Part shown: positions 243 through 54,452 of the stretch, piece after piece
How positions within the stretch are numbered: position 1 is the first letter of the stretch
Layout: the number at the start of each line of letters is the position of its first letter
Assembly: GCA_002293685.1 (NCBI GenBank)
Contig: DBDS01000004.1
Location: 100,479-155,567, forward strand
Direction of reading: 5' to 3'
From: Patescibacteria group bacterium UBA926
GTDB taxonomy: Bacteria > Patescibacteriota > Doudnabacteria > UBA920
DNA: 55,089 nt
The notes under the pieces: model-generated
The model's input: only the letters and a program-made list of their open reading frames with translations
What the model was told of the DNA's origin: nothing
The model's database searches: none
Program-made: the position numbers and the translations under genes

Positions 243-341
243 GTCATCCTGAGGCTGTAAGCCGAAGGATCTCGGATGAGATTCTTCGCTTCGTCCGCAC
301 AAAATCTTCGCGAGATTTAGGCGGACTACGCTCAGAATGAC
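243..341. repeat. convergent pair of hairpin elements (GTCATCCTGAG..CGAAGGATCTC on plus, GTCATTCTGAG..CGAAGAATCTC on minus)
   Basis: This was read directly. The plus copy is at 243-273 and the minus copy at 274-341. Confidence 0.85.
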
Positions 342-352
342 AATACTACTAA

Positions 353-1537
353 ATGATCATCACAATAATAATCTTCATAGCCGTACTATCCTTGCTTGTG
401 TTTGTACACGAGCTAGGTCACTTTGTTGTGGCGAAGCGTTCTGGTATGGGTGTTCATGAATTTGGGTTTGGATTTCCACCACGATTAATCGGTCTTCAAA
501 AAGTGCCCGTCTATAAAAATAATGCAGACGGGCATCCTGAGCCTGTCGAAGGATCAGGGCGATGGCGAGTTGTGTGGCGAAAACAAGAAACATCTACGGA
601 TGCCACTATATATTCCATTAACGCGATACCTCTCGGTGGTTTCGTGAAAATTATGGGCGAAGATAACGATGAGGCTTCTGATCCAAAAAGTTTTAGTAAC
701 AAATCTTTTGGTGCAAGATTTTTAACTCTCGCAGCAGGTGTTCTCATGAACGTGTTAACTGCGTGGGTGATCTTCTCGATAGGTTTTATGATTGGTTTAC
801 CTGTTGCAGTAAACGAATTAGCTGATTTACCTTCTGGTGGGAAATTCACCGAACAGCAAATCTTAATTGGGCAAGTTCGTGAAGGAAGTGCCGCGGAAAC
901 TGCCGGTCTAAAAGATAGTGATATTATTCTTTCAGTTGATGACCAATCAATCAATGAAATTACTAACTTACAACAATACATTCAAACTCAGCAAGGAGAA
1001 GTGATTAATTTCGAAGTAAAAAGATTAAATGAAGTACTCGAGATTCCAGTCACGACAAGCTTAGATGCAAGTCCTGAGCAGGGAATTGTTGGGATTGGTT
1101 TGGGATACTTTGGTAAACTGAGTTTTAACCCACCTCAAGCGATTTTTCAAGGAGCAAAAACCACAGTAAATCAACTCCAAGCAATTTTCACAGGATTGTA
1201 TAGTATTTTCACAACTTCTGAGGGTATAAAAGGTGTAGGTGGTCCAGTAAAAATTGCTCAACTCACTGGTCAGGTAGCTGATTTAGGATTATTACCACTT
1301 CTTCAGTTCACAGCTTTTCTTTCTTTAAACTTAGCAATACTTAACTCCTTACCGCTCCCAGCACTCGATGGCGGACGAATGTTATTCTTAATTATAGAGA
1401 AGCTTCGTGGCAAACCGAATAACCAGAAGATAGAACAGTACGCGAATGCAATTGGTTTCATGGCTTTGCTATTACTGATGTTAGTAATCACTGCGCGCGA
1501 CGTTTCTCAGCTCGAGTCAATTAAAAATCTTTTCTAG
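353..1537 (+). CDS. rseP: RseP-like site-2 (M50) zinc metalloprotease with PDZ domain
   Basis: It has an N-terminal HELGH motif in a TM helix and a central PDZ-like segment (GSAAETAGLKDSDIILSVDD). It also has a C-terminal NSLPLPALDGG motif and is multi-TM. Confidence 0.8.
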   Translation: MIITIIIFIAVLSLLVFVHELGHFVVAKRSGMGVHEFGFGFPPRLIGLQKVPVYKNNADGHPEPVEGSGRWRVVWRKQETSTDATIYSINAIPLGGFVKIMGEDNDEASDPKSFSNKSFGARFLTLAAGVLMNVLTAWVIFSIGFMIGLPVAVNELADLPSGGKFTEQQILIGQVREGSAAETAGLKDSDIILSVDDQSINEITNLQQYIQTQQGEVINFEVKRLNEVLEIPVTTSLDASPEQGIVGIGLGYFGKLSFNPPQAIFQGAKTTVNQLQAIFTGLYSIFTTSEGIKGVGGPVKIAQLTGQVADLGLLPLLQFTAFLSLNLAILNSLPLPALDGGRMLFLIIEKLRGKPNNQKIEQYANAIGFMALLLLMLVITARDVSQLESIKNLF

Positions 1538-1539
1538 CA

Positions 1540-2784
1540 ATGAAGCAATCACAATATTTTTCCAGAACTAGCAAGACTGCACCTAAAGACGACGTTTCGG
1601 TAAACGCGCGTTTGTTAGAGCAAGCTGGATTTGTTCACAAAGAAATGGCAGGAGTTTATTCCTACTTGCCACTGGGCTGGCGCGTTCTTCAAAAAATTGA
1701 AAATATAATCCGTGAGGAAATGAACGCAATCGGTGGTCAAGAAATTTTGATGCCAGCGATGCAGCCTAAAGAAAACTGGCAAGCAACTGGACGTTGGGAT
1801 AGTTTAGATGTGTTATTCAAGATTAAGTCACAGCATGATAACGAGTACGCGCTTGGCCCAACTCACGAAGAAATCGTAACTCCGTTAGGAGTTGGGCGAA
1901 TCAGTTCATACCGTGATTTGCCTTTAGCTGTTTACCAAATTCAAACAAAGTTCCGCGATGAAGCTCGTGCAAAATCTGGATTAATGCGTGGGCGCGAGTT
2001 TCGAATGAAAGATTTGTATAGTTTTCACACTACCGAAGAGGATCTAGCGCGATACTACAAAGTCGTCGCCGAATCTTACACAAAGATTTTTAATCGTCTA
2101 GGAATTCCTGCTTTGTATGTCGAAGCAGATGGCGGGACGTTTGCAAAATATTCTCACGAGTTTCAGGTGGAAACCCCAAATGGTGAAGACGTAGTGTATG
2201 TGTGCAATAAATGCCAACTTGCTGTAAATAAAGAAATCTTTTCTGATGAAAAAACTTGTACAGATTGTGGTGAGAAAGATTATCGAGAAACCAAAGCCAG
2301 CGAAGTCGGCAATATTTTTGAACTCAAAACCAAATTCTCCGAAAGCTTTAAATTGACTTATACAGACGAAGACGGTTCTCAAAAACCGGTATTAATGGGT
2401 TGTTACGGAATCGGACCTTCGCGTATCATGGGCGTTATCGTCGAGGAACATCATGACGAAGCTGGAATTATCTGGCCAGAGTCAGTTTCTCCTTTCGCCG
2501 TCCATCTAATTGCGTTGGGTGGGAAGGATGCAGAAGTATCAGAGCAGGCCGAAAAATTGTATTCCAACCTACTGGCGGCAGGCGTCGAAGTGTTATATGA
2601 TGACAGGACAGAAGCGTCAGCCGGGCAAAAGTTTGCGGATAGCGATCTGATTGGTATTCCCAACCGAGTCATAATTTCCAGCAAGACTATCGCGGAAAAC
2701 AGCGTAGAGCTTAAAAATCGCGCCTCGGGTGACACTAGTTTAGTACCTCTTAATCAAATCATGGAAAAGTTTAGCAATGCTTGA
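1540..2784 (+). CDS. proS: prolyl-tRNA synthetase, short form lacking the INS editing domain
   Basis: It has a class II catalytic core (GPTHEE, FRDEARAKSGLMRGREF, GCYGIG) and a C-terminal anticodon-binding domain. It is only 414 aa. Confidence 0.85.
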   Translation: MKQSQYFSRTSKTAPKDDVSVNARLLEQAGFVHKEMAGVYSYLPLGWRVLQKIENIIREEMNAIGGQEILMPAMQPKENWQATGRWDSLDVLFKIKSQHDNEYALGPTHEEIVTPLGVGRISSYRDLPLAVYQIQTKFRDEARAKSGLMRGREFRMKDLYSFHTTEEDLARYYKVVAESYTKIFNRLGIPALYVEADGGTFAKYSHEFQVETPNGEDVVYVCNKCQLAVNKEIFSDEKTCTDCGEKDYRETKASEVGNIFELKTKFSESFKLTYTDEDGSQKPVLMGCYGIGPSRIMGVIVEEHHDEAGIIWPESVSPFAVHLIALGGKDAEVSEQAEKLYSNLLAAGVEVLYDDRTEASAGQKFADSDLIGIPNRVIISSKTIAENSVELKNRASGDTSLVPLNQIMEKFSNA

Positions 2785-3829
2785 CTTCTTATTTAAAAGA
2801 TTTTCACAGGATTTAGGAATAGATCTTGGCACCGCTAATACCCTCGTCTATGTTAAAGGCAAGGGTATTGTTATCAATGAACCTTCTGTGGTTGCGATTA
2901 ACCAGCGTACCAAACAGATTTTGGCGATTGGAAACGAAGCGCAAAAAATGGTTGGCCGAACACCAACACATATTGTCGCTACCAGACCTTTGGTAGACGG
3001 AGTTATTTCTGATTTCGAAATTACAGAGGCAATGCTTCGTTACTTTATCGATAAAGTTCACAATCAAACTTATAGCTTCCTACGTCGACCTCGCGTCGTG
3101 ATTGGTATTCCATCCGGTGTCACCGAAGTAGAGAAGCGTGCTGTGCAAGACGCGGCGATTAACGCAGGCGCGCGCGAAGCATTCTTAATTGAAGAACCAA
3201 TGGCAGCGAGTATTGGCGCTAGGCTCCCTGTTCAAGATGCGCAAGGTTCAATGATTATTGACATCGGTGGTGGAACTACTGAAATCGCTGTGTTGTCTTT
3301 GGGAGGCGTGGTTATTGCGCGCAGTATGAGAATTGCAGGTGATACTCTTAACGAACATATCGTGCAGTACGCACGGGATAATTTTGGCATGCTAATTGGC
3401 CTTCGCACTGCAGAAGAAATTAAAATTAAAATTGGTTCCGCATATCCTTTAGCTGAACAGTTAACCGCTAGTTTACGCGGTCGCGATTTAGTTTCTGGTT
3501 TACCAAAAGAAATTATTGTTACCGATACTCATATCCGAGAAGCTTTGGCGCCAGCAGTTAAAACTATTCTTAACAGTGTGAAAGCTGTCATAGAAGAAAT
3601 TCCTCCAGAAATTATTTCGGACATTATGCATCGTGGAATTATGCTTGCTGGTGGCGGTGCTCAGCTTCGTGGGCTTGATCAGTTAATTCGCGATGAAACT
3701 AAAATGCCGGTAACAATTGCCGATGACCCTCTTACTTGCGTAGTACGAGGAACAGGAATCGTTGTTGAGGATTTAGAATCACTCCGTGACGTATTGCTTC
3801 CTACAGATTTTTCTCGAATTCCAAAGTAA
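2777..3829 (+). CDS. mreB: rod-shape actin homologue MreB
   Basis: It carries the MreB signatures DLGIDLGTANTLVY, DIGGGTTEIAV and MLAGGGAQLRGLD. It overlaps the proS stop by 8 nt. Confidence 0.92.
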   Translation: MLDFLFKRFSQDLGIDLGTANTLVYVKGKGIVINEPSVVAINQRTKQILAIGNEAQKMVGRTPTHIVATRPLVDGVISDFEITEAMLRYFIDKVHNQTYSFLRRPRVVIGIPSGVTEVEKRAVQDAAINAGAREAFLIEEPMAASIGARLPVQDAQGSMIIDIGGGTTEIAVLSLGGVVIARSMRIAGDTLNEHIVQYARDNFGMLIGLRTAEEIKIKIGSAYPLAEQLTASLRGRDLVSGLPKEIIVTDTHIREALAPAVKTILNSVKAVIEEIPPEIISDIMHRGIMLAGGGAQLRGLDQLIRDETKMPVTIADDPLTCVVRGTGIVVEDLESLRDVLLPTDFSRIPK

Positions 3830-3993
3830 TAGAAAGTAGATAGTAGGGAGTAGAAAATAGAGAATAGTAGATAGTAAATGGTAACTAGTAGCAGGTAAAG
3901 GGTAAGTCATAATAAACCTCTCAAATTTACAACCTAATTAAACATAACTGACTACTTATTACTTCCTATCTCCTACTTACTACTCACTAATCC

Positions 3994-4794
3994 ATGCGCT
4001 TTATATACACAAAAACATTCTTTATATTTGCTGCCGTTCTAGTGGGAATATTAATTGCGCTAGTCATGCAGGTGAAAGGTTGGTTTTCACCAATCGAGTA
4101 TTTGTTATTGCAATTACCAAGACCAGCTATTACTGCTGTGAATGCGGTAGTGAGACCTATATCTACTGTGACGAGTACACTAACAAGCCTTCCTGAGCTT
4201 GTCAGAGAAAACACAGCGCTTCAATCAAAGAATGCTGAACTCACTCAACAATTAGTTGAGCTTGAGCAATTGAGGGCGCAGAACGAAACTTTGCGTTCAG
4301 AATTAGAGTTCGTTGAAAGATCTCCGTTTACACTTGAGCCTTGTACAGTCCTCTCAATTGACCCTCAAAGCACAAGCGACGCAATTGTTATAAATTGTGG
4401 TGAGGATACCGGAATAAAACCAGGACAGGCTGTTATTAGTAATGGATACTTGGCTGCAAAAATTATTCATGTGGGCAGATTTAACTCAACTGCGATTCTA
4501 ATTACTAGCAGTCAATCTTCTGTAGATGCGCAATCATCTCGTTCTAATAATGAAGGTGTTGTTAAGGGTTCATTCGGCTCAGGATTAGTTCTCGATTTGG
4601 TTTCGCAATCAGCAGATATCAAACCAGGAGATTTAATTGTCACCGCAGGTATTAATCCTGAAGTGCCAAGAAATATTTTAATTGGTTCTGTTGATCAAGT
4701 TCTCTCAGGTGATAATGATTTATTTAAGCGTTTGACTTTAGTTTCACCAATCAAAACCCACCGTTTAGATTATGTCTTTGTAGTTAAACCGTAA
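3994..4794 (+). CDS. mreC: rod-shape protein MreC
   Basis: It has an N-terminal TM helix, a coiled coil (NAELTQQLVELEQLRAQNETLR) and a C-terminal beta-rich domain. It sits between mreB and mreD. Confidence 0.75.
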   Translation: MRFIYTKTFFIFAAVLVGILIALVMQVKGWFSPIEYLLLQLPRPAITAVNAVVRPISTVTSTLTSLPELVRENTALQSKNAELTQQLVELEQLRAQNETLRSELEFVERSPFTLEPCTVLSIDPQSTSDAIVINCGEDTGIKPGQAVISNGYLAAKIIHVGRFNSTAILITSSQSSVDAQSSRSNNEGVVKGSFGSGLVLDLVSQSADIKPGDLIVTAGINPEVPRNILIGSVDQVLSGDNDLFKRLTLVSPIKTHRLDYVFVVKP

Positions 4795-4799
4795 TTACC

Positions 4800-5330: not shown

Positions 5331-5336
5331 GTACAT

Positions 5337-7307: not shown

Positions 7308-7406
7308 CACGTAAGTGTCATCCTGCTTGTCTTTCGAAGCTAAAGCGGACTGGGCTGCAAAGGCGCTCGTTTAGCACACAAACTAATCGTCAGATGGGGT
7401 AAAGGA

Positions 7407-8877: not shown

Positions 8878-8935
8878 GTCATCCCGGAAGCCATAAGTCC
8901 TGAGAGAATTCGAAGGACGCAGGCTATCCGGGATC
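8878..8935 (+). repeat. nested hairpin element (GTCATCCCGGAAGCC[..TCCTGAG..CGAAGGA..]GGCTATCCGGGATC)
   Basis: The outer arms are identical in type to the 42375 copy, but the loop is replaced by a second element core. Confidence 0.8.
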
Positions 8936-8940
8936 TAAAA

Positions 8941-8968
8941 AACCGCTTTCAGTGAAGCGGTTTTTTTG
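8941..8968 (+). terminator. rho-independent terminator after greA
   Basis: The ACCGCTT/AAGCGGT stem is followed by a T7 tract. Confidence 0.8.
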
Positions 8969-29852: not shown

Positions 29853-29963
29853 TCATATTCAAAATAGAAATAAATCCTGGAAGCGAAGCTATCCGGGATC
29901 TAGACCCCGGCTCTTCGGCTGGGGTTTCGTTTATATAAGCCAAATTTTCATTATTAGGTATAC

Positions 29964-30040: not shown

Positions 30041-30097
30041 TTTAACAAAAGTCATTCTGAGTTTAACAAAAGTCATTCTGAGCGTTAGCGAAGAATC
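30041..30097 (+). repeat. hairpin element with a tandemly duplicated head (TTTAACAAAAGTCATTCTGAG x2, then CGTTAGCGAAGAATC)
   Basis: This was read directly. Confidence 0.85.
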
Positions 30098-30256
30098 TAG
30101 TGACAGACATATTTTTGCTCTTTTCCCCTGGTATTTAACTACAGTCAGGCCGGAAACGAGCAGAAACATGTCTGGCACCGCGCCAACAGTAGCCACGGCT
30201 GCCGTTCCACGGTATAGTCAAGACAAAGTTCTTTAAAAAATATCTTGGAGGATATC

Positions 30257-32815: not shown

Positions 32816-32890
32816 GTCATCCTGAGGTCGGAGACCGAAGGATCTCATGAGGGATTCTTCGTCCCGCCGTTGGCGAGACTCAGAATGACA
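32816..32890. repeat. convergent pair of hairpin elements, same architecture as 243-341
   Basis: The plus copy GTCATCCTGAGGTCGGAGACCGAAGGATCTC is at 32816-32846. The minus copy GTCATTCTGAGTCTCGCCAACGGCGGGACGAAGAATCCCTC is at 32850-32890. Confidence 0.85.
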
Positions 32891-40333: not shown

Positions 40334-42088
40334 ATGAACACTCAAGAATTACAACAACTCATCATGGAACTCGGCTTAGATCCTAATGATCAACAGCTTC
40401 AAAAATTGCTTATGCAAATTTTGGAAAGCAAGCCGCAAGTGGAAATTAGTCAGGGTTTCAAAGAACAACTCCGAACGCAGTTGGTTCAGCAAACAACTGT
40501 TGCAAAAGCAGGAGCAACAAATTCTCTTTCTCGTCATGCTGAGCAAACAACAAACTCTTCTTCTCGTCATGCTGAGCAAACAACAAACTCTTCTTTTCGT
40601 CATGCTGAGCAAACAACAAACTCTTCTTCTCGTCATGCTGAGCGAAGCGAAGCATCTCCAAAAAATAATTTATTAACAAATCTTATGCAAAAAATAATGA
40701 TCCCAGCTCTTGTGGCGGTAGTCGTCCTAGTAGCTGGTGGTGCGTGGTACGCAAATCAACAAAACCCAGGTTTAATTGATTTCGGCGGCGGCGACGAAAT
40801 CTTGTCTGGTAAATATTCCGTGGACCAACTTGACGCTGGTTCTTTCGGAGATTTGAGCAAAGTCGCTATCGTTTCAGGTGGTCCTGCGACTGGAATGGGA
40901 AGTGGCGGCGGAACTAACTTAACAAGTGACGCTCAAAAAGCAACCGAATCCGAACGGATGGCAATCGCTCCAGTTGGTTCAGGCGGCGGTTCAGATGCGA
41001 GCATCTTACCTTACCCTGATGGATATAATTTTATGTACGAAGGTGAAGAAATATCTGGTCTTGCCGAAACACAAGATGTGTTGAAGCGTCAAAAACCAGA
41101 GCAAAGCGAAAGCGTGGTTAGTCGAATTATTCGAATTTTCAGTTTTGGTCTAGTTGATTTAACAAAGTTCACTAATACCCGTATTCAAAGTTTTGCTTTC
41201 ATGGAAGATAAAGACTTAGGATTAAGTGTTAACATTGATTTACATCAGGGTAATATTGGAATTTATCAGAACTGGGAGAAGTGGCCACAACCTCAATATG
41301 GATGTGAAGGTAGCTACTGTGGTGCGTTACCACGTATTACTGAATCAGATTTACCAAGTGACGAAGAAGCTTTACGAATCGCAAATCAGTTCGTTAGTGA
41401 TTACGGAATTTCGTTGGAAGGTTACGGCGCTCCGATGGTTTATGAACCACACAACTGGCGTATCGCTTACGAGCGAGCAGAAGACAAAGCAGGATTTTAT
41501 ATTCCAGAAACAGTGAATGTAATTTACCCAATTGAAATTGAAGGTCAGAGAGTATTTGATGAAAACGGCCACCCAACTGGAATGAATATCAATATTGACG
41601 CTCGTACACGTCGTGTTTCTACTATGTACGGACTAGAAACCAAGCAGTTCCAACGTTCGGCGTATCAAGGTGAAACAGATGCGAACCGAATTTTAGGAAT
41701 TGCTAATCGCGGCGGTTACCGTAATCAGTTATGGGAAGGAACTAATCGTCAAACATTGATTTTGGAAACCCCGACTGTACAGTTGGTCCGCATTTGGTAC
41801 TCTAACGATCCAACTCGCATGGGTGAAGAATTATACGTACCGGCTCTTGTTTTCCCAATTCGCAATGTTGAGCAAACTAACTACTGGCGTAAGAGTGTAG
41901 TGGTTCCTTTGGTGAAAGAATTGTTAGACAATGAAAACCAAGGCGGTGGACCGGTGTATCCGATGCCAATGCCTGTGGACGATGGGCCGATGCCAGTTGA
42001 ACCAGATGGCGGAATTGGTGACACACCAGACGCACCTCAATCTACCGAGCCAAGCGCTCCGATAACTTTACCTGCTCCTAGAGGTTAA
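40334..42088 (+). CDS. putative anti-sigma / membrane protein with a large extracytoplasmic domain and an internal 33-nt tandem repeat
   Basis: It lies 4 nt downstream of the ECF sigma gene. It has a single TM helix (IMIPALVAVVVLVAGGAWY) and about 440 aa outside the membrane. No zf-HC2 motif was seen. Confidence 0.5.
   Translation: MNTQELQQLIMELGLDPNDQQLQKLLMQILESKPQVEISQGFKEQLRTQLVQQTTVAKAGATNSLSRHAEQTTNSSSRHAEQTTNSSFRHAEQTTNSSSRHAERSEASPKNNLLTNLMQKIMIPALVAVVVLVAGGAWYANQQNPGLIDFGGGDEILSGKYSVDQLDAGSFGDLSKVAIVSGGPATGMGSGGGTNLTSDAQKATESERMAIAPVGSGGGSDASILPYPDGYNFMYEGEEISGLAETQDVLKRQKPEQSESVVSRIIRIFSFGLVDLTKFTNTRIQSFAFMEDKDLGLSVNIDLHQGNIGIYQNWEKWPQPQYGCEGSYCGALPRITESDLPSDEEALRIANQFVSDYGISLEGYGAPMVYEPHNWRIAYERAEDKAGFYIPETVNVIYPIEIEGQRVFDENGHPTGMNINIDARTRRVSTMYGLETKQFQRSAYQGETDANRILGIANRGGYRNQLWEGTNRQTLILETPTVQLVRIWYSNDPTRMGEELYVPALVFPIRNVEQTNYWRKSVVVPLVKELLDNENQGGGPVYPMPMPVDDGPMPVEPDGGIGDTPDAPQSTEPSAPITLPAPRG
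40533..40658 (+). repeat. 33-nt tandem repeat (3 head-only units plus 1 complete GTCATGCTGAGCGAAGCGAAGCATCTC element) inside a CDS
   Basis: The units start at 40533, 40566, 40599 and 40632. They encode SRHAEQTTNSS three times and then SRHAERSEASP. Confidence 0.9.
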
Positions 42089-42094
42089 GAATAA

Positions 42095-42409
42095 GTATCC
42101 CCGGGCGAGCGCAGCGAGACCCGGGGTCTACAATGTCATCCTGAGTCCGCCATGGGCGGACGAAGGATCTCTCTCTGTCATCCTGAGGCGCTATTAAACT
42201 GTCATCCTGAGTCCGCCATGGGCGGACGAAGGATCTCTCATGTCATTCCGGCCTTGAGCCGGAATCTCCTGAATGCCATCACGGCATTACATATGTCATC
42301 CCCGCGAAGGCGGGGAATCCAAAAAATACATCAGTAAAACCCGCTCTGCAACAGAGCGGGTTTTTGTTTTCCATGTCACCCCGGAAGCCCGAAGGGCTAT
42401 CCGGGGTCC
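42095..42409 (+). repeat. array of seven same-orientation hairpin elements, including two identical 37-mers
   Basis: The copies start at 42095, 42135, 42177 (head only), 42201, 42242, 42295 and 42375. A canonical terminator at 42336-42366 lies within the array. Confidence 0.9.
42336..42366 (+). terminator. rho-independent terminator inside the element array
   Basis: The sequence is AAAACCCGCTCTG-CAAC-AGAGCGGGTTTTT. Confidence 0.8.
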
Positions 42410-42469
42410 ATTTTTCCAAACCACTACATTAATCTCAGATATCTAGTCCCTCTGTGGTAAAATTAAACC

Positions 42470-42865: not shown

Positions 42866-42872
42866 CCCCAAT

Positions 42873-42979
42873 GTCATCCTCGGCCAAAGGATAAGTATCC
42901 CCGGGCGAAGACCCGGGGTTTCTCATATCATCCTGAGGCGCTATTAAATTGTCATCCTGAGGCGCAGCCGAAGGATCTC
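42873..42979 (+). repeat. cluster of four hairpin elements
   Basis: The copies start at 42873, 42895, 42927 (head only) and 42951. Confidence 0.85.
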
Positions 42980-43311: not shown

Positions 43312-43343
43312 GTATCCCCGGGCGAGCGAAGCGAGACCCGGGG
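43312..43343 (+). repeat. hairpin element GTATCCCCGGGCGAGCGAAGCGAGACCCGGGG
   Basis: It is a near-identical copy of 42095-42128. Confidence 0.85.
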
Positions 43344-43554
43344 ACTAAACCCACCATGTGGGTTTTTTGCTTGTTCTGGCGGGATATTTGTTTAGATTTT
43401 CTTCAGTTTTTGTTATGCAAAATTTGAGAAAACCTTGATAAGGTTTTTATTTCGTTTTGTTAGGATGAGAATAAGTATTTTTCTAGTGCCTCGAGTATTC
43501 CCTCACAGCGAGTAAGCTAGGGAAAACTATCTAACCTAAAAAAGGGTGGTTTAG

Positions 43555-45478: not shown

Positions 45479-46507
45479 ATGAAATTAATTTCATTATTCT
45501 CAGGTTGCGGTGGTCTTGATCGAGGTTTTGAAAATGCCGGATTCAATGTAGTTTGGGCAAATGAATATGATAAGACCATTTGGGAGACTTTTCAAAAAAA
45601 CTTTCCTCACACCTATTTAGATACGAATGACATTAGGAATGTGAAGTCGGACTCTGTACCAGAAGCTTTAGGGATCATTGGTGGACCTCCTTGCCAGAGT
45701 TGGAGCCTTGCTGGTTCCATGCGAGGTATTGATGATCACAGAGGTCAATTGTTCTACGAATATTTGAGGCTGTTAAAGGATAAAAAGCCTTTGTTTTTTC
45801 TAGCTGAAAATGTAGCTGGTTTGATATCTTCCGCTCATCGGTCCAGCTTTGACAATATAATTGAATCATTTTCGGAGATAGGCTATAACGTCTCGTTTAA
45901 GCTATTAAATGCGGCTCATTACGATGTACCGGAAGACAGGTTGAGGGTTATAATAGTCGGATATAGAAAAAATGTTGTCAAAAAGTTTTTTGAGTTTCCA
46001 GAGCCTAGTAATACTCGTTTAAATTTACATCATGCTATAGGTGACTTACCAAAAGCTATTCCTGCAAAAGAAAAAAATAAGACGAACGGTTTGTATAGAA
46101 CAATTTTGCCAAATCATGAATATATGATCGGTGGTTTCTCAACAATGTATATGTCCCGAAATCGTAAGCGAAATTGGGATCAGCCTTCTTTTACAATTCA
46201 AGCTGGTGGTAGGCATGCTCCTTTGCATCCATCGGGTCCTCCAATGGAAAAATTAGGAGCTGATAAATGGATATTTAAAAAAGGAAGCGAATCTAAATAC
46301 CGTCGCTTATCAGTGAGGGAATGTGCCCGAATTCAAACTTTCCCAGATGACCATATTTTTTATTATAACGATGTAGCTGATGGTTATAAAATGATCGGCA
46401 ACGCGGTACCGGTAAAATTTGCCGAAGCTATAGCTAAGGCGATAAAAGTAGATATAGAACCATTTGTTGCTCAGACCTCAAAAGCTAAGTTAAAAGTTGT
46501 TATTTAA
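45479..46507 (+). CDS. DNA (cytosine-5)-methyltransferase, HaeIII-like
   Basis: It has motif I FSGCGGLDRGF, motif IV GGPPCQSWS, motif VI ENVAGL, motif VIII RVIIVG, QTFPDD and motif X GNAVPV. The variable region (KNKTNG..PNHEY..MSRNR) resembles M.HaeIII as I recall it. Confidence 0.9.
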   Translation: MKLISLFSGCGGLDRGFENAGFNVVWANEYDKTIWETFQKNFPHTYLDTNDIRNVKSDSVPEALGIIGGPPCQSWSLAGSMRGIDDHRGQLFYEYLRLLKDKKPLFFLAENVAGLISSAHRSSFDNIIESFSEIGYNVSFKLLNAAHYDVPEDRLRVIIVGYRKNVVKKFFEFPEPSNTRLNLHHAIGDLPKAIPAKEKNKTNGLYRTILPNHEYMIGGFSTMYMSRNRKRNWDQPSFTIQAGGRHAPLHPSGPPMEKLGADKWIFKKGSESKYRRLSVRECARIQTFPDDHIFYYNDVADGYKMIGNAVPVKFAEAIAKAIKVDIEPFVAQTSKAKLKVVI

Positions 46508-46572
46508 TTAGTCGCATATAATAGCGGTAAATTGTAAAGAATGCTAAACTGCGTGTAAGTTTAGTATTTTTT

Positions 46573-47454
46573 ATGCCACAATCAAACCAATCAGGAAGAA
46601 CTTTAGAATATGCAATAGTTGCAGTGATAATAAGTAATCACCCTAAGGATAAAATTGAATTATCCGCCCGTTTGGTGAATAACCAAAAAAAAGATCAGGT
46701 AAGTTTTTTGGCATTACCTGAAAAGGTACGGCTACAGCATATGAAGTATGCATCGATTGTATATCAATGGCTTAGCGATGATTTCAGAATTTCTCAAAAA
46801 GAAATTGTATTGGACAGAATGTCGGATGTTGATGCAAAATACGGAGACGTTACCGATATAAGAATAACTATGGATGGATCTAACCTCAATCTTTCAGTCA
46901 AGCATAATCATTTTGCATTGAAACACCAAAGACCATCTACTACTGCTATTAGATGTGGGTTTGCGCCTAAGTCCAAAGAAGATTTGGAATTTAGAAAGGA
47001 CTTGGGAAATATTACCGGTGCCTTTATAATTAATTCATCAAAAGATTATCCCGATGCTACACTGTTTAATGAAATAAAATCACAATCACCGACTTATATT
47101 AATAAAAATTTATATTTCCCGGTATGTAACCTAATTTCTGGTTTTATAAATAAGTATTCAGACCGAATAAACGTTGTCACACTCTTTAAATTTTTGGTAG
47201 GAGACACTGATTTCTATAAGGTAACAGCATTTAAGAAGCAAATTGTTATTGAGGAGTTCGCTAGACTTCAAAAGCCTACTTCGGTGACAACGAGACTTAA
47301 AGGTGATAGCTATATAATCTTAAATTTTTCAAATGGATGGGATATTAGTTTACGTTTACACACGGCGTCTTCAAAGATTGGAAAAAATCCAAGCCTGAAA
47401 TTTGATACTCTATTAATTAATTCGGATATGCCTAGTAAGTATATTAATGTATAA
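46573..47454 (+). CDS. putative type II restriction endonuclease partner (PD-(D/E)xK-like)
   Basis: It lies immediately downstream of the C5 methyltransferase. The candidate catalytic motif is GDVTDIRIT...NLNLSVKHN. No other domain was recognised. Confidence 0.6.
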   Translation: MPQSNQSGRTLEYAIVAVIISNHPKDKIELSARLVNNQKKDQVSFLALPEKVRLQHMKYASIVYQWLSDDFRISQKEIVLDRMSDVDAKYGDVTDIRITMDGSNLNLSVKHNHFALKHQRPSTTAIRCGFAPKSKEDLEFRKDLGNITGAFIINSSKDYPDATLFNEIKSQSPTYINKNLYFPVCNLISGFINKYSDRINVVTLFKFLVGDTDFYKVTAFKKQIVIEEFARLQKPTSVTTRLKGDSYIILNFSNGWDISLRLHTASSKIGKNPSLKFDTLLINSDMPSKYINV

Positions 47455-48051: not shown

Positions 48052-48060
48052 ATTGATTAA

Positions 48061-48092
48061 AAAAACAGTCGACGGTGAGGTCGGCTGTTTTA
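48061..48092. terminator. bidirectional terminator between convergent genes
   Basis: The ACAGTCGAC/GTCGGCTGT stem is flanked by A5 and T4 tracts. Confidence 0.7.
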
Positions 48093-48109
48093 GTATGGTT
48101 TGAAAAAAT

Positions 48110-48796: not shown

Positions 48797-48933
48797 TAAT
48801 TATCTAACCTCCTTCTGTATATGTATCGAAACAACTAGCTATTGTACGATACTTTATAAGTTAAGTCAATGCAATGGGGATTGGACTGGAATTTAGATTG
48901 TTGTTAAAATAACCATAATTAAGAACAAAATGC

Positions 48934-49683: not shown

Positions 49684-49708
49684 TAGTTTTCATAAGTGGA
49701 TAAATAAC

Positions 49709-49738
49709 AAAAGCCAGATACGAATATCTGGCTTTTTG
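49709..49738 (+). terminator. terminator after the SPFH gene
   Basis: The sequence is AAAGCCAGATA-CGAA-TATCTGGCTTTTT. Confidence 0.8.
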
Positions 49739-49818
49739 ATTTTCTTAGCTCAAATTTGAGGAAAAATTAATCCGGACTTCAGGTTCCGTTTGTCATAATT
49801 CCAGTGTATAATTAATTT

Positions 49819-50136
49819 ATGATTGCGATGGCAAACAAAAAATCAGAATACGGTGAACTAATCGAGTTTTTAACTGATCAGTTTTTCAAAATCGAGGAAA
49901 ACTTTAGAAAGATTGATGAACGTTTCGACAAGGTTGATGAACGTTTCGACAAGGTTGATGAACGTTTTAACAAAATTGACGAGCGACTTGACCGTCTTGA
50001 AAATGGTCAAGATCATATTTTGGGAGAACTGCAGAAGTTGCAGTTGGAAAATACAGTGGGTGTGCACCGCTCTCACCGCATGGAAGAATGGATAATCAAG
50101 GCTTCCAAGAAAATTGATGTTCCGTATAAACCGTAA
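49819..50136 (+). CDS. small coiled-coil protein with a heptad tandem repeat (ERFDKVD)n
   Basis: It is a 105-aa ORF. The repeat is encoded by 21-nt tandem units at about 49915-49977. The start could be the ATG at 49828. Confidence 0.5.
   Translation: MIAMANKKSEYGELIEFLTDQFFKIEENFRKIDERFDKVDERFDKVDERFNKIDERLDRLENGQDHILGELQKLQLENTVGVHRSHRMEEWIIKASKKIDVPYKP
49915..49977 (+). repeat. 21-nt tandem repeat (GATGAACGTTTCGACAAGGTT x2 plus diverged units)
   Basis: This was read directly. It encodes DERFDKV heptads. Confidence 0.85.
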
Positions 50137-50154
50137 AACAGCCTCACGGCTGTT

Positions 50155-50901
50155 TTAAATTTGATAATCACCAATCGAAGTTCGCTTTAGCTGATAGAGC
50201 AGTGCTGGGCAATTTAATTTCTTACCGAGCTCGACCGCGAGAGTGCGAATGTATGTTCCGCTGGAGACTTGGAAGTTAATATCTAGAATAGTTAGCTCGT
50301 CGCCTGATTTAAACTGCTGGTTTAACTTCTCCCACGAATTGAAAACTTCTGTTTGTCTGAAATCGCCGGACAGTTTATTAATAGCGGTAGTTGCGTATTG
50401 AAATATATTTTTCCATTGTTCGGGGGAGTTGCTAGTAAGTTCCGCGGATAATACCGTCATCTCACGAGTAGGGATTGTAATCTGATCTTGCTTGTTTTCT
50501 TTGGTCCACAACCAAAGCGGCTTGCCATCTACAGTCTTGGACGAAAATGCAGGATAAGGGAGTTGGTGTATACCAATCAGTGAGCTCACAGCGGTTTGAA
50601 TTTCGAATTCGGTTGGCCGTGTAAATTCTTCAGAAGAAACCAAACCCAAAATATCATAGCTATCCGAATTCACGCCGAGCAATATCTTCGCTTCGTAAGT
50701 TTTAGGCAAAGCCAAAAATTGTTCCTTTTGGTGCACAGCATCGCCGATTAATAATAACAACAATCCTTCGGCCATCGGATCGAGTCGGCCTGCGTAAGTG
50801 ATTGACTTATTAGCAAGTTCTGGGTGTTGTTCGCGCAAAGCATCGATTGCTTCAAGCGGTGTTTGCCCTAGTAATTTATTTACAACAACAACTTCATTCA
50901 T
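50155..50901 (-). CDS. truB: tRNA pseudouridine-55 synthase-like (TruB family)
   Basis: It has the catalytic Asp motif AGRLDPMAEGLLLLLIG followed by KTYEAKILLG, and is 248 aa. Confidence 0.75.
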   Translation of the reverse strand: MNEVVVVNKLLGQTPLEAIDALREQHPELANKSITYAGRLDPMAEGLLLLLIGDAVHQKEQFLALPKTYEAKILLGVNSDSYDILGLVSSEEFTRPTEFEIQTAVSSLIGIHQLPYPAFSSKTVDGKPLWLWTKENKQDQITIPTREMTVLSAELTSNSPEQWKNIFQYATTAINKLSGDFRQTEVFNSWEKLNQQFKSGDELTILDINFQVSSGTYIRTLAVELGKKLNCPALLYQLKRTSIGDYQI

Positions 50902-50959
50902 TTGTTAATTTTAGCTGAGTCAACAGAGAAGAGGAAGAGTTTCGGTTTGCTTAACTCGA

Positions 50960-50968
50960 TGATATAAT
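50960..50968 (+). promoter_or_regulatory. extended -10 (TGATATAAT) ending 6 nt before the msrA ATG (leaderless-type)
   Basis: This was read directly. Confidence 0.5.
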
Positions 50969-50974
50969 CAAAGT

Positions 50975-51514
50975 ATGAATAATGGCTTGAAAACAGCAGT
51001 TTTTGCAGGGGGCTGTTTCTGGTGCACTGAAGCGGTTTATCAGAAGCTACGTGGCGTTACTGAAGTTATTCCAGGGTATACTGGTGGTCAGACGCAGAAC
51101 CCAACTTACGAGCAAGTTTCGAGTGGAGCAACAGGACACGCCGAAGCCATTCAATTTACTTTTGATCCCGGGCAAATTAGTTACGAAGATTTATTAAACG
51201 TGTTTTTCGCGACTCACGACCCGACTACATTGAATCGACAAGGAAATGACGTGGGCCCTCAATACCGCTCCGTCATTTTTTACACAAATGATGAACAGAA
51301 ACAACAAGCCGAAAAATTCGTTGCACAGTTAAGCGAAGATAAAGTTTTTCCCAATCCAATTGTTACTACAATTGAACCGCTAGGCGAATTTTACGAAGCA
51401 GAGGATTATCATAAAAATTATTACGAACGAAATTCAGGACAAGCATATTGTCAGTTAGTAATTTCACCCAAACTACATAAACTAAAAGAAAAGTTTGCGT
51501 CATTAATAAACTAA
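50975..51514 (+). CDS. msrA: peptide-methionine (S)-S-oxide reductase
   Basis: It has the GGCFWCTEAVY active site, HDPTTLNRQGNDVGPQYRS and EDYHKNYY. Confidence 0.9.
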   Translation: MNNGLKTAVFAGGCFWCTEAVYQKLRGVTEVIPGYTGGQTQNPTYEQVSSGATGHAEAIQFTFDPGQISYEDLLNVFFATHDPTTLNRQGNDVGPQYRSVIFYTNDEQKQQAEKFVAQLSEDKVFPNPIVTTIEPLGEFYEAEDYHKNYYERNSGQAYCQLVISPKLHKLKEKFASLIN

Positions 51515-51515
51515 A

Positions 51516-52202
51516 ATGAAGTTAAAATGTCCTGCTTGTAATGTGCAAATGAGTCATGTGAACACTCACTCACATTATAAAATTCCAATCGAGTTGGATC
51601 AGTGTAAAAAATGTGGAGGGGTTTGGTTTGATTCGTCAGAGTTATTTACTTCTCACTTTGAAGCTCATAAAGATTTACATGAAATTAACTCTAAACTGTT
51701 AAGTAAGGGAGTAATTCTGAAAAGTGATAAGTTACTTTGCCCAAGAGATAAAGTCCAGTTAAAGAGATATAAAGACTCGTCTTTTCCAGAAGAATTATTA
51801 TTGGAAAGTTGTGAAGTTTGTAACGGATTTTTTTTCAATCGAGTACACTTTGCGAATTATCAAAAGCTGCGTGTCAAAAAAGCCGTTGTCAAAGATATTT
51901 CCGACGATGCTTTAAAAGCAAAGATTCAGGTTTTACTGGAAGGACAGTCTGATAAAGCGTTTAATCAGACTATTGAAAAGGTTTCAAAAACATTAAAAAA
52001 ACCAGTTCCACCTATCGCCATTGCGTCATATGCACTTTTTGGTTTACCCGTCTTTATCTTATTCGCACTGACTATAGTTTTTAAAGAATTATTATTTAGC
52101 CTTTCGGGTTCTGATGTTAGGCTTAGAAAATCGAAGCACAAAGAAAAAAAACTTGCTTCAATGGTAGATTTCATTTTGACACCTGAGAATACTAAGAAGT
52201 AA
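51516..52202 (+). CDS. double zinc-ribbon protein with a C-terminal TM helix
   Basis: It has two CxxC...CxxC(G)xWF(D/N) modules (CPACNV..CKKCGGVWFD and CPRDKV..CEVCNGFFFN) and then a hydrophobic helix. Confidence 0.5.
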   Translation: MKLKCPACNVQMSHVNTHSHYKIPIELDQCKKCGGVWFDSSELFTSHFEAHKDLHEINSKLLSKGVILKSDKLLCPRDKVQLKRYKDSSFPEELLLESCEVCNGFFFNRVHFANYQKLRVKKAVVKDISDDALKAKIQVLLEGQSDKAFNQTIEKVSKTLKKPVPPIAIASYALFGLPVFILFALTIVFKELLFSLSGSDVRLRKSKHKEKKLASMVDFILTPENTKK

Positions 52203-52206
52203 AATT

Positions 52207-52539
52207 ATGACCGTCACACCAAGCTTTATAGAATATGTTTTGGTAGATTTGTTTGCGGGTGACCCTGCGATTACAGCGCGCCCGATGTTTGGTGCCGTTG
52301 GATTATATTTTGAGGGTAAAATTTTTGGAATCATTTCTGCGGATCAAGTTTACTTCAAAGCAGATAAATCGAATATTCGTAGCTTTGTCTCACGTGGAAG
52401 CGAACAATTTTCCTATATGAAAAATGGCATTGAGCATAGATTGCCATATTGGTTGTTACCAGCGGAAATTTTGGAAAATCCTCACTTGTTAATGAAGTGG
52501 GCAAAGAAATCCTCTATGATAGAATTAAATAGTAATTAA
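52207..52539 (+). CDS. TfoX N-terminal domain protein
   Basis: The motif RPMFGAVGLYFEGKIFGIISADQVYFKAD is typical of the TfoX_N domain. Confidence 0.7.
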   Translation: MTVTPSFIEYVLVDLFAGDPAITARPMFGAVGLYFEGKIFGIISADQVYFKADKSNIRSFVSRGSEQFSYMKNGIEHRLPYWLLPAEILENPHLLMKWAKKSSMIELNSN

Positions 52540-52549
52540 TTATAATTTT

Positions 52550-52918
52550 ATGAAACTAATTTTTCACTGGATTGTTTCCACTATCGCGATTTTAATCGCA
52601 GCTTACTTAATTCCTAATGTGGAAGTTGATACTTTTGTCACAGCGTTAATTTTGGCTGTTGTGCTTGGCGCTCTAAATATGTTGGTCAAACCAATTTTGC
52701 TTCTACTAACTTTCCCGATTACCATAATTACTTTAGGATTGTTCACAATTGTTATCAACGCCGCTTTAGTTTGGTTGGCTCAGTTGGTCGTTCCAGGATT
52801 CACTATCCAAAATTTTGGCTGGGCAATATTGTTCGCTCTTGTGCTATCAATTATTAATTTGGTGTTCCGACAGATGAACCGTTCAGATGACAAGCCAAGT
52901 TTTCGGGTGAATAATTAA
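52550..52918 (+). CDS. DUF360 / phage-holin-4_2 family membrane protein (YvlD-like)
   Basis: It has four TM helices and the motif VVLGALNMLVKPILLLLTFPITIITLGLF, characteristic of this family. Confidence 0.7.
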   Translation: MKLIFHWIVSTIAILIAAYLIPNVEVDTFVTALILAVVLGALNMLVKPILLLLTFPITIITLGLFTIVINAALVWLAQLVVPGFTIQNFGWAILFALVLSIINLVFRQMNRSDDKPSFRVNN

Positions 52919-52977
52919 TTGAGCCATTCCTTATTGTGGATTCGGATAGTAATTTTGTAATAACATTAGACTAGTTA

Positions 52978-53048
52978 GTACCCCCGGAAACCCGAAGGGT
53001 TATCCGGGGTCCAATCAATTCAGACCCCGGGTCTTCGCCCGGGGATAC
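52978..53048. repeat. convergent pair of hairpin elements (GTACCCCCGGAAACCCGAAGGGTTATCCGGGGTCC plus; GTATCCCCGGGCGAAGACCCGGGGT minus)
   Basis: This was read directly. Confidence 0.8.
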
Positions 53049-53078
53049 TAATCTTTCAGCAAGGAATGACACAATAGC

Positions 53079-53480
53079 ATGGATACAATAATAAAATCTG
53101 AAGATGAGTGGCGGAAGGATTTAACTCCTGAGCAGTATGCTATCTTGCGTGAGAAGGGCACCGAGCTACCGTTTACAGGAAAGTATGTAGATAATCACGA
53201 TGAAGGTTTTTATACCTGTGCTGCGTGTGGTCAGCAGTTGTTTTCTTCAGAAGCAAAGTTCGATTCTGGTACAGGTTGGCCAAGTTTCACTGACCCGATG
53301 AACTTAGAGCACGTGGAATTACTTGCTGATAATTCGCATGGTATGCGACGAACTGAGGTTATTTGTAAGCGCTGTGGTTCTCATCTTGGCCATTTGTTTA
53401 ACGACGGGCCGATAGATAAGGGTGGTAATCGTTACTGTATAAACTCCTGCGCATTAAATTTCGAAAAAAGTGACACGTAG
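53079..53480 (+). CDS. msrB: peptide-methionine (R)-S-oxide reductase
   Basis: It has two CxxC zinc sites ([18 protein letters not shown]) and the SelR motif GWPSF. Confidence 0.9.
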
Positions 53481-53481
53481 T

Positions 53482-53659
53482 GTCATCCCTGGCGAGCCTG
53501 AGTAAGCGAAGGCGAGACCGGGGATCCAATGATAGATTCACTGTAAGCGCTTTGCGGTTCCGGGAATGACAGAGTTTCGTGATATAATACTCAAGTTATT
53601 AAAGATTAGATTCCGGATAGTTCAATCCCGCGTTGCGGGATTTTCGCTTCCGGAATGAC
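53482..53659. repeat. three hairpin elements (one plus at 53482-53527; two minus, ending at 53570 and 53659, the latter nested)
   Basis: This was read directly. Confidence 0.75.
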
Positions 53660-53669
53660 AAGGGAGTTT

Positions 53670-54020
53670 ATGAACGAATTACAAACAGTCTTTGGACGCA
53701 TGAAAGAAACGCGTCAGAAGCAAAAAGAAATCCGCGCGATGTATAAAGATCAACTAGTGGGAAATCAGGAATATCAGAACATCATAGATAAATTGAACGA
53801 GCTCAAAGAAAAGAAAAAAATGATTGAGAACGAGATTCAGAATGAAATGGAAGCGGACTTTCAAAAATTAGATGCCTATAAAATGCACTTGGTGAACGAT
53901 CAAGAACTTTTAGCCGACCTAGCATTAAATCAATTGGTGTCTGGTGAGACTGTAGAAATTGTTGACGAGAATGATCAAAAGTATGAACCAATCTTCAGCG
54001 TTAAATTCAAAAAAGTTTAA
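53670..54020 (+). CDS. hypothetical coiled-coil protein (start moved out of the repeat element)
   Basis: The track start at 53655 lies inside a hairpin element (GGAATGACA). The ATG at 53670 follows AAGGGAG. The terminator-like hairpin at 54030-54066 follows the stop. Confidence 0.5.
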   Translation: MNELQTVFGRMKETRQKQKEIRAMYKDQLVGNQEYQNIIDKLNELKEKKKMIENEIQNEMEADFQKLDAYKMHLVNDQELLADLALNQLVSGETVEIVDENDQKYEPIFSVKFKKV

Positions 54021-54357
54021 TACTACTAAAAAACCTCTCAACCTTTTCCGGTTAGAGGTTTTGCGTTTGATTACAGAATACACTTCGGAGTTAAATGTTC
54101 AGTGTAAGCAGATCAAACTGAAGTCTCTTCGCAGCAGATGGGGGAGTTGCACGCGCGCTGGTGTGATTACAATCAATCTCAAACTGAACGAACTGCCTTC
54201 CGAACTACTTTCTTATGTTGTGTATCACGAATGCTTGCATCTAATTTATCACAACCACGGCGCGGAGTTTCAATCAAAGCTCTCTTCAAAATTTCCTCAG
54301 AAGAGGGAATTAAATAAAGCTCTGAAAGTTTTAGGAACTCAGTTACTTCGCAAATAA
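53959..54357 (+). CDS. YgjP/DUF45-like HExxH metallopeptidase, C-terminal domain only (probably truncated; start uncertain)
   Basis: The sequence SRWGSCTRAGVITINLKL...YVVYHECLHLIYHNHGAEF matches the WGSC...HExxH...H core of DUF45. The annotated 5' part overlaps the upstream gene and spans its terminator hairpin. Confidence 0.5.
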   Translation: MLTRMIKSMNQSSALNSKKFNTTKKPLNLFRLEVLRLITEYTSELNVQCKQIKLKSLRSRWGSCTRAGVITINLKLNELPSELLSYVVYHECLHLIYHNHGAEFQSKLSSKFPQKRELNKALKVLGTQLLRK

Positions 54358-54390
54358 AAAACCGTCCTTTATACGAAGGGCGGTTTTTCT

Positions 54391-54452
54391 GGATCCCGGA
54401 TAGCCCTTCGGGCTTCCGGGATGACATTTGAGGTTCGGGCTTCCGGGATGAC
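54391..54452 (-). repeat. hairpin element with a duplicated head (minus strand AACCTCAAATGTCATCCCGGAAGCCCG x2 ..AAGGGCTATCCGGGATCC)
   Basis: This was read directly. Confidence 0.85.

Follow-up and report, generated by a model that had tools for sequence, protein, structure and literature searches.

Hairpin repeats in a Doudnabacteria genome are probably Ssn-related motifs of the CGTC-tagged class linked to GIY-YIG nucleases

A 55,089-nt stretch of contig DBDS01000004.1 from Patescibacteria group bacterium UBA926 (Doudnabacteria), hereafter termed the window, carries a family of short hairpin elements. These elements had been noticed in an earlier reading of the sequence alone. We conclude that they are probably Ssn-related motifs (SRMs), that is, CGTC/TGTC-tagged repetitive extragenic palindromes (REPs): DNA hairpins that work in single-stranded DNA (ssDNA), are read by Ssn nucleases and spread as satellites. 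The repeat class itself has already been described. Added here are the host clade, the breadth of the main subtype, the failure of the published motif string to find it, filled and empty sites in close relatives, and directional duplications of half copies.

A total of 31 parts was counted in the window (Table 1), in agreement with the roughly 30 copies of the sequence-only reading, and every coordinate given there holds a copy. The copies at 7317, 53482, 53535 (minus strand) and 53609 (minus strand) were added to that list. About 15 of the parts are intact GTC-headed hairpins and 4 belong to a 'GTAT' subtype; the others are degenerate copies (about 5) and left halves (about 7). The strand tally is 24 plus and 6 minus. 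Compared with dinucleotide-preserving shuffles of the window, three definitions of the family were enriched: GTCATYCTGAG with at most one mismatch (18 matches vs 1.23 expected, with a shuffle maximum of 4), a generic rule with one complementary pair, TCAY-x-C-Y ... R-G-x'-R-TC (20 vs 1.27), and GTC followed by a 5-bp stem, its complement and C (20 vs 2.2). A chance origin was rejected on these counts of 18-20 matches vs 1.2-2.2 in shuffles.

The main subtype (A; GTCATYCTGAGCGNAGCGAAGRATCT) has the layout T-GTC-[A-Y-N-C-T]-GA-[GC]-GNA-[GC]-GA-[A-G-N'-R-T]-C-T. A base of 5 bp is followed by a tandem G.A/A.G internal loop and then by an upper stem that varies and is sometimes nested, usually with a GNA triloop as its cap. 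In its minimal form this part reads GCGNAGC, and the C that trails the stem mostly has T as its next base. An unpaired (T/A/C)GTC head is present in at least 15 intact window copies, with a stem that begins A-Y and a C after the stem, and the window copies end in ..ATC/GTC with T or C as the next base. Subtype C is a bulged 13-bp stem, and nested CCTGAG..CGAAGG modules are common inside loops (8878 and 53482 in the window, and at other loci). The earlier list of subtypes was correct in its coordinates and was amended in two heads: that at 52978 reads GTAC and not GTCAC, and subtype D (GTATCCCCGGG, 'GTAT') lacks the C of GTC.

Three stem-base variants, ATCCT/AGGAT, ATTCT/AGAAT and ATGCT/AGCAT, occur in the window. 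Among 188 copies from at least 120 loci in many phyla, the variable pair was C-G in 101, T-A in 83 and mismatched in 4; T occupied position -1 in 144 of 187 cross-phylum copies, and the 5-nt centre was CGNAG with any N (CGCAG 27, CGAAG 22, CGTAG 9, CGGAG 6; commonest core GAGCGNAGCGAAG). A second sample (278 kb) was drawn with an anchor that fixes unpaired bases only and leaves all paired positions free, and yielded 110 matches vs about 0.5 expected, with 42 distinct cores. Pairing was found in 91.5% of cells vs 81.0% after shuffling, a level that 0 of 500 shuffles reached, while slid-alignment controls paired at 20-51%. Six of the seven pairs varied on both sides, and 43 cells were compensatory vs 11.6 in shuffles. 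In the alignment of 42 sequences, the first pair was A-T in 34 and the second pair T-A or C-G in 38. These data uphold the claim that the stem is kept by compensatory change.

Conservation is highest at unpaired bases, namely those of the GTC head, the tandem G.A and the GNA loop, together with the post-stem C. When hairpins were collected with flanks unconstrained, GTC preceded the stem in 279 of 426 and C followed it in 321 of 426. The same fold was predicted by energy models for DNA and for RNA, and the minimal 25-mer was weakly stable in nearest-neighbour models (DNA -2.7 kcal/mol, z -0.6). Since the 25-mer is only marginally stable while the G.A, GNA loop, GTC and trailing C are conserved, conservation of the motif points to recognition rather than bulk stability. 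A GNA loop within GCGNAGC is a DNA mini-hairpin motif, and d(GCGNAGC) mini-hairpins were reportedly found by Hirao and co-workers to be extra-stable; the commonest core of the family likewise has a GNA triloop closed by C-G, in which the middle base is free. d(GCGNAGC) is a structural motif and not a repeat family, and is relevant only as a hint of a DNA-shaped hairpin.

The sequence-only reading had not recognised the family as a described one. Head, stem and tail are arranged as in the CGTC-tagged REP superfamily (PMC3733652) and in the NTS/SRM repeats (PMC11893778). Di Nocera et al. (2013, BMC Genomics 14:522; PMC3733652) described families CGTC-1 to -4, in which an unpaired CGTC (often TGTC) head is followed by a stem that starts with A-T and then T-A and by a short unpaired tail. 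Stems in these families are perfect over 8-9 bp, loops measure 4-5 nt and most dimers are head-to-head; copies also lie within genes, several families occur per genome, and the superfamily takes in Neisseria dRS3 as well as Rickettsia RPE-6 and RPE-4 (PMC3733652). The window family has the tag of this superfamily (CGTC, TGTC or CCTC), its first two stem pairs (A-T, T-A) and its short unpaired tail, and shares with it the intragenic copies and the presence of several families in one genome. A copy in the relative L213, GTCATCCTGAACTTGTTTCAGGATC, has CGTC-2 geometry (8-bp stem, 5-nt loop). The dominant window subtype differs in its G.A internal loop, interiors of 5-40 nt and nested modules.

Chenal et al. 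(2025, Nat Commun 16:2388; PMC11893778) recast dRS3 as the oriented NTS (CGTCATTCCCGCG..GCGGGAATC) and generalised it to the SRM. The cognate protein, SsnA, is a 94-aa single-domain GIY-YIG protein of family cd10448 that binds the hairpin only as one-strand ssDNA and cuts a few nucleotides upstream; RNA and double-stranded DNA (dsDNA) are not substrates (PMC11893778). In Neisseria, cutting requires GTC, binding requires the post-palindrome C, for which it is the most critical base, and knockout of ssnA led to about five-fold more transformation by NTS-bearing DNA (PMC11893778). Because the best-conserved bases of the window family are unpaired, and two of them serve this Neisseria ssDNA nuclease, selection on an RNA hairpin need not be invoked. 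The window elements likewise have an unpaired (C/T)GTC head, an AT stem start, a hairpin of 20-50 nt and a post-palindrome C. SRMs number hundreds of copies, clustered and mostly intergenic, and the window family is similar. The NTS stem, ATTCCCGCG-N-CGCGGGAAT, contrasts with the 5-bp base, tandem G.A loop and variable GNA-capped upper stem of the window subtype, and the window host is a bacterium of the candidate phyla radiation (CPR), unlike the NTS host.

Database and literature searches gave little beyond these two classes. A full-text literature search with exact element sequences returned primers and unrelated matches only. At Rfam gathering thresholds the window contained one tRNA only; at permissive E-values, the one meaningful match was that of 42293-42384, which aligned, below the family threshold, to FtrB (RF02748, Francisella sRNA B), with the 42295 copy corresponding to the FtrB hairpin. 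The FtrB consensus contains GUCAUUCCCGCGUAGGCGGGAAUCUC, a hairpin with NTS/CGTC-1-type head, stem and tail. From these sequences, the FtrB 'sRNA' model seems, at least in part, to represent a copy of this class of DNA repeat.

To map the distribution of the main subtype, GTCATYCTGAG-N(3-30)-CGAAGRATC was scanned with one genome per species, and at least 120 loci in dozens of phyla were matched. Groups among the matches listed include Nitrospirota, Chloroflexota, Acidobacteriota, Bacteroidota, Firmicutes, several proteobacterial classes, Verrucomicrobiota, Omnitrophota, Melainabacteria, Saccharibacteria, Gracilibacteria, Paceibacterota and others. Since the exact motif is present across many phyla, the repeat is not lineage-specific. 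The range, which includes CPR bacteria, extends beyond the Proteobacteria, Chlorobi, Bacteroidetes, Spirochaetes and Thermotogae reported for CGTC REPs (PMC3733652).

The link to GIY-YIG proteins was reached by clustering of neighbouring open reading frames (ORFs), independently of PMC11893778. Among 278 neighbour ORFs of the 188 copies, the sole recurrent family was a 93-109-aa GIY-YIG protein; the element-flanked protein matches Pfam GIY-YIG (5e-17). Its gene is bracketed by inverted element copies in three phyla (Saccharibacteria, Bacteroidota and Gracilibacteria), with bracketing on both sides also at the individual loci L012, L031, L056 and L215. In a sample of 80 metagenomic loci chosen only by similarity to the GIY-YIG protein alignment, elements lay no more than 200 nt away on the upstream side at 57, on the downstream side at 59 and on both at 50, and element density was 6.7 per kb near the gene vs 0.43 per kb farther off, a 15-fold enrichment. 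For comparison, 71% of the genes for SsnA homologues have the published motif nearby, and 42% are flanked by it on both sides (PMC11893778). The flanking copies point their heads outward and are exactly of the window's subtype, including the ATGCT/AGCAT variant, with the further covarying bases ACCCT/AGGGT and ACTCT/AGAGT. Compared with the only GIY-YIG ORF of the gonococcus, the protein shows 46% identity (E 4e-16, 95% coverage); this ORF lies among 7 NTS copies within 1.4 kb and is the counterpart of the N. meningitidis NTS-ssnA-NTS locus. A search of the PDB returned distant UPF0213 relatives only and no Ssn structure. Thus, the SRM-gene-SRM arrangement around a gene for a single-domain GIY-YIG protein of about 95 aa is also seen for the window's subtype, and the Ssn-family link of this subtype holds from loci in other genomes. 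At one such locus, on the Planktothrix agardhii plasmid NZ_LR882964.1 (18247-19713; L215), an Ssn-type GIY-YIG gene is accompanied by subtype-A repeats and by arrays of left halves; there the gene stands between an MmeI-type restriction-modification gene and DISARM drmA, in a defence island.

By homology with NTS and SsnA of Neisseria, a single-domain Ssn GIY-YIG nuclease of about 95 aa would bind the folded hairpin on one strand only. It would read the unpaired GTC and the post-stem C, nick ssDNA a few nucleotides 5' of the head, and be inactive on dsDNA and RNA. The repeats may multiply as non-autonomous satellites of an SRM-ssn-SRM unit that resembles an insertion sequence and would itself move between phyla. 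Their cellular role probably lies in modulating ssDNA transactions, such as restriction or trimming of transforming ssDNA, recombination or local rearrangement, and a copy transcribed within a 3' untranslated region (UTR) may act at the RNA level as a side effect.

Several points weigh against assignment of the window family to the Ssn system. No ssn gene turned up in the window, in the 9.6 kb preceding it or in the 10 kb that follow its end in a close relative, a total of about 75 kb, and tblastn with the GIY-YIG proteins found none in the window, the 9.6 kb upstream or the relatives L210-L213 and L216. The 277-aa GIY-YIG and DUF4357 protein beside HsdR in L216 belongs to a different family. 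The published SRM string, HGTCWYN(0-2)YYVSBRHN(0-5)WNVSBRGN(0-2)RNCYNB, had 0 matches in the window vs 0.1 in shuffled sequence, which places the window subtype beyond the operational definition in the literature; NTS-like palindromes had served to build the string, and the 42295 copy misses it at the last base only. Within the CGTC superfamily, the perfect 8-9-bp stem with a 4-5-nt loop is found only at 42242 and nearly at 42295, and dimers there are mostly head-to-head whereas all four window dimers (243/280, 32816/32853, 52978/53022 and 53482/53609) are tail-to-tail. The properties assigned to the nuclease (ssDNA binding, cut site, no binding of RNA) are carried over by extrapolation from enzymes of Neisseria and Wolbachia, and the route by which copies reach new loci is conjectural. 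Finally, the strong sense orientation after stop codons in the window also fits a role at the RNA level.

Turnover of the elements was assessed in relatives. The window forms one end of the JGI contig Ga0119928_1000004, which derives from a sludge or bioreactor metagenome, and its host is a small-genome CPR bacterium. The window MreB is 81-88% identical to proteins named Candidatus Doudnabacteria, and the relatives L210-L213 were compared over a syntenic 21 kb from gatCAB to murC. Over this region the window strain has 10 copies, and relatives with MreB identities of 95, 90, 88 and 87% have 0, 0, 2 and 4-5, respectively. The frr-rseP spacer measures 117 nt with two copies in the window, and 0-16 nt with no copies in L210, L211 and L213. 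Past greA, L210 keeps the terminator and the aspS -10 box without an element, and L213 has a different subtype at that position. RseP of the window strain has 16 extra residues that include the 531 copy, an insertion absent from four relatives by protein alignment. The GatB linker has about 30 extra in-frame residues in the window strain; L212 has an independent insertion at the same point, L211 a 4-residue stretch only, and L210 and L213 no insertion. The gatB insert lies in the upstream flank (L208 4382-4468) and comprises a plus/minus element pair and a left half (..VILSDSE..DPSASPQDDGK ISQDDGK..).

Comparisons at closer range gave a similar picture. L216 (contig JALHPQ010000001.1) is a close relative with 95-98% DNA identity to the window and an identical MreB. 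It lacks the composite at 52923-53070 and has no spacer there, the holin stop abutting the msrB start; it has three of the left-half units of which the window has one at 54426-54452, and its copy corresponding to 53535-53570 is intact where that of the window is decayed. The near-identical strains L001-L006, L207 and L209 offered no informative polymorphism. Because close relatives lack elements at orthologous sites, the elements are gained and lost fast, and the 10 copies of the window strain where the relative with 95% MreB identity has 0 indicate recent activity. Copies accumulate at places that tolerate insertions: just past stop codons, before terminators, in spacers, in protein linkers and in the loops of older copies. 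The elements are fast-turnover repeats and not conserved cis-regulatory sites, and they have recently expanded in this CPR lineage.

These empty sites bear on an alternative that we consider unlikely, namely that the elements are 3' UTR RNA hairpins that shield mRNA from 3' exonucleases or tune termination or translation, like the REPs of Escherichia coli, and that selection on the RNA structure maintains them. The fold is identical under RNA parameters, and position speaks for such a role. Where a copy is the first past a stop codon, it is in sense orientation throughout, as the sequence-only reading had stated, and at 9 of 10 loci it lies about 1-60 nt downstream, often before a separate terminator. 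At the sortase gene, the 30051 and 30072 copies lie 198-219 nt past the stop and beyond the sortase terminator (29902-29927), and the copies at 531 and 40533-40658 are inside ORFs. Orientation is less telling than it seems. GC skew is uniformly positive in the window and genes lie mostly on the plus strand, so that orientation to transcription and to replication are inseparable, and the one minus-strand case is uninformative because a convergent spacer makes either orientation sense with respect to one gene. In co-directional spacers across phyla the sense bias is weak (42 sense vs 27 antisense), while convergent spacers hold more copies than divergent ones (33 vs 16), which favours an RNA role. 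Against it stand the orthologous 3' UTRs of close relatives, which lack the elements and keep their terminators, the copies within ORFs and in inverted pairs, and the best-conserved bases, GTC and the post-stem C, being unpaired. The GNA loop inside GCGNAGC was also counted as pointing to DNA, and the family is tightly linked to the gene of an Ssn-family nuclease whose Neisseria member, SsnA, binds no RNA.

The elements are not simply terminators, as had been argued from the sequence. They lack T-tracts, and separate canonical terminators follow at three after-stop loci (8937-8966, 42336-42364 and 43347-43365). Intrinsic termination was rejected as an explanation in that the tails are CTC or CC and not a T-run, and only the 42895 subtype D copy was flagged by a terminator scan.

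A second alternative accepts an Ssn-type origin for the elements and holds that they are orphan relics, the nuclease having been lost and the copies now changing by slippage, recombination and drift only. The lack of an ssn gene in about 75 kb, the decayed copies at 531, 7317, 42869 and 53535, and the absence of an SsnA homologue from 19% of SRM-rich genomes (PMC11893778) are consistent with this, yet we regard it as improbable. Identical copies occupy separate sites (42135 and 42201; 42895 and, on the minus strand, 53025-53048), strains at 95-98% identity differ by whole insertions, and the ssn search covered about 9% of a genome of about 0.85 Mb.

The comparison with REPs made in the sequence-only reading was apt, the elements being short tagged hairpins that form inverted dimers and clusters. 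In REP/BIME elements (bacterial interspersed mosaic elements) and REPINs, short extragenic tagged hairpins likewise form inverted dimers and clusters, and their hairpin is read in ssDNA by a small nuclease, the RAYT, whose gene the repeats bracket, in parallel to SRM and Ssn. Mobilisation of classical REPs or REPINs by a RAYT (an IS200/IS605-type Y1 HUH transposase) is nonetheless very improbable here despite this similar look, which extends to the unpaired 5' tag and the intragenic copies, for the tag is GTC and not GTAG, no Y1_Tnp gene occurs in the window or flanking loci, no transposase flanked by CGTC repeats was found by Di Nocera et al. (PMC3733652), and the only gene family flanked by these repeats is of the GIY-YIG and not the Y1 HUH type.

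Copies truncated at the 3' side were found directly 5' of complete copies far more frequently than in the converse arrangement, with 70 head-head cases vs 8 tail-tail. The period of these left halves peaks at 21-22 nt, and the 10 nt upstream of paired heads are alike (6.3/10 identical vs 3.05/10 for random pairs). This upstream likeness identifies the left halves as units duplicated in tandem, each made of the left arm and about 10 nt of its flank. Cases in the window are at 30051, 42177, 42927 and 54426 (minus strand) and in the 33-nt in-frame array at 40533; arrays elsewhere include a Nitrospirales chromosome, the Planktothrix plasmid and others. Speculatively, Ssn would nick DNA about 10 nt 5' of GTC, strand-displacement synthesis from the nick would stall in the hairpin, and ligation of the hairpin-protected flap would duplicate the segment from nick to stall. 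We advance only tentatively the proposal that the main subtype with its own Ssn clade is the most widespread bacterial SRM class, missed by the published string, and that the left halves are the first physical footprint of repeat multiplication.

A repeat common in CPR and many uncultured genomes is now tied to a characterised system of ssDNA hairpins and Ssn nucleases, and the published motif definition under-detects the SRM class. For annotation, the repeats produce spurious small ORFs, in-frame insertions in the essential proteins RseP and GatB, and chimeric metagenomic contigs. The filled and empty sites and the directional left-half duplications are concrete material for testing how CGTC/SRM repeats spread, and each pair of hairpin and Ssn is a candidate sequence-specific ssDNA nuclease for biotechnology.

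Table 1. Parts of the hairpin family in the window, numbered from its first nucleotide
Position	Strand	Element	Context
243..273	+	Subtype-A full hairpin, GTCATCCTGAG-GCTGTAAGC-CGAAGGATCTC	7 nt past frr stop
280..341	-	Subtype-A full hairpin (ATTCT/AGAAT), long interior	Tail-to-tail partner of 243
531..558	+	Degenerate subtype-A, head GGC, inside rseP	Part of in-frame 16-aa insertion
7317..7345	+	Decayed copy, GTCATCCTGCTTGTCTTTCGAAGC...	About 9 nt past mrdA stop
8878..8937	+	Subtype-C hairpin, ATCCCGGAAGCC...GGCTATCCGGGAT, loop filled by nested GTCCTGAG..CGAAGGAC	Between greA stop and conserved terminator
30051..30071	+	21-nt tandem duplicate: 10 nt flank + left half GTCATTCTGAG	
30072..30099	+	Subtype-A full hairpin (ATTCT/AGAAT)	
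32816..32846	+	Subtype-A full hairpin	16 nt past GT2 stop
32853..32889	-	Subtype-A full hairpin	Tail-to-tail partner of 32816
40533..40631	+	Three 33-nt in-frame tandem units, left half CGTCATGCTGAG in each	Inside orf584
40632..40658	+	Minimal 25-nt core GTCATGCTGAGCGAAGCGAAGCATC (ATGCT/AGCAT)	Inside orf584
42095..42129	+	Subtype D, GTATCCCCGGG...CCCGGGG, head without C of GTC	
42135..42173	+	Subtype-A full hairpin, upper stem TCCGCC/GGCGGA	
42177..42200	+	Left half GTCATCCTGAGGCGC + spacer TATTAAACT	Module repeated at 42927
42201..42239	+	Subtype-A full hairpin, identical to 42135 copy	
42242..42268	+	Perfect 8-bp stem, 5-nt loop, GTCATTCCGGCCTTGAGCCGGAATCTC	Classical CGTC REP geometry
42295..42320	+	GTCATCCCCGCGAAGGCGGGGAATCC, near NTS/CGTC-1 type	Canonical terminator after, 42336-42364
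42375..42410	+	Subtype-C full hairpin	
42869..42890	+	Short A-like copy GTCATCCTCGGCCAAAGGATAA, tail A not C	3 nt past tspO stop
42895..42921	+	Subtype D copy	
42927..42950	+	Left half (ATCATCCTGAGGCGC) + spacer TATTAAATT	
42951..42979	+	Subtype-A full hairpin	
43312..43346	+	Subtype D copy	11 nt past rhodanese stop; terminator after, 43347-43365
52923..53070	-	About 150-nt composite insert bounded by GTCATTCCTT...AAGGAATGG	Holds 52978 and 53022 copies
52978..53012	+	Subtype-C copy, head GTAC	
53022..53048	-	Subtype D copy	
53482..53528	+	C-like full hairpin, nested CCTGAG..CGAAGG module	1 nt past orf133 (msrB) stop
53535..53570	-	Decayed copy, right arm mutated	Intact in L216
53609..53659	-	C-like full hairpin	
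54392..54425	-	Subtype-C full hairpin	Convergent spacer after orf167
54426..54452	-	27-nt tandem duplicate, flank + left arm	Three such units in L216

The gene that holds the 33-nt array, orf584 (40334-42088, anti-sigma-like), is a single 584-aa ORF in the window. Its counterpart is split into two or three ORFs in the near-identical strains L002 and L003 (2-3 substitutions), and it may be polymorphic or decaying. The metagenome-assembled contig of L003 (GCA_002343965.1, DDSW01000062.1, 17740-19777) matches the window up to 40658, the end of the 25-nt element, and past this junction continues into GC-rich, unrelated sequence with another element copy. It looks like a chimeric assembly joined at a repeat that different organisms share.

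In the upstream flank, the 5' end of the miaA ORF (L208 6241-6350) holds a 42-nt tandem array made up of subtype-A copies on the minus strand plus a single right-half remnant, and miaA as called encodes 386 aa vs 301-343 aa in relatives. A subtype D and a subtype C copy lie beside this array (L208 6373-6439), where the L209 assembly breaks into Ns. The mreB-mreC spacer of the window (3830-3993) carries an insert of about 160 nt, a purine-rich AGTAG-like run followed by its pyrimidine complement (CTACT...), which forms a long imperfect inverted repeat; the spacers of relatives measure 11-123 nt and have no such repeat by eye. A Dcm-type methylase and a HaeIII-like endonuclease (45479-47454) constitute a strain difference from L216 that is unrelated to the hairpins. 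A zinc-ribbon ORF at 51516-52202 is absent from L216, which instead has a type I HsdR and a GIY-YIG/DUF4357 gene.

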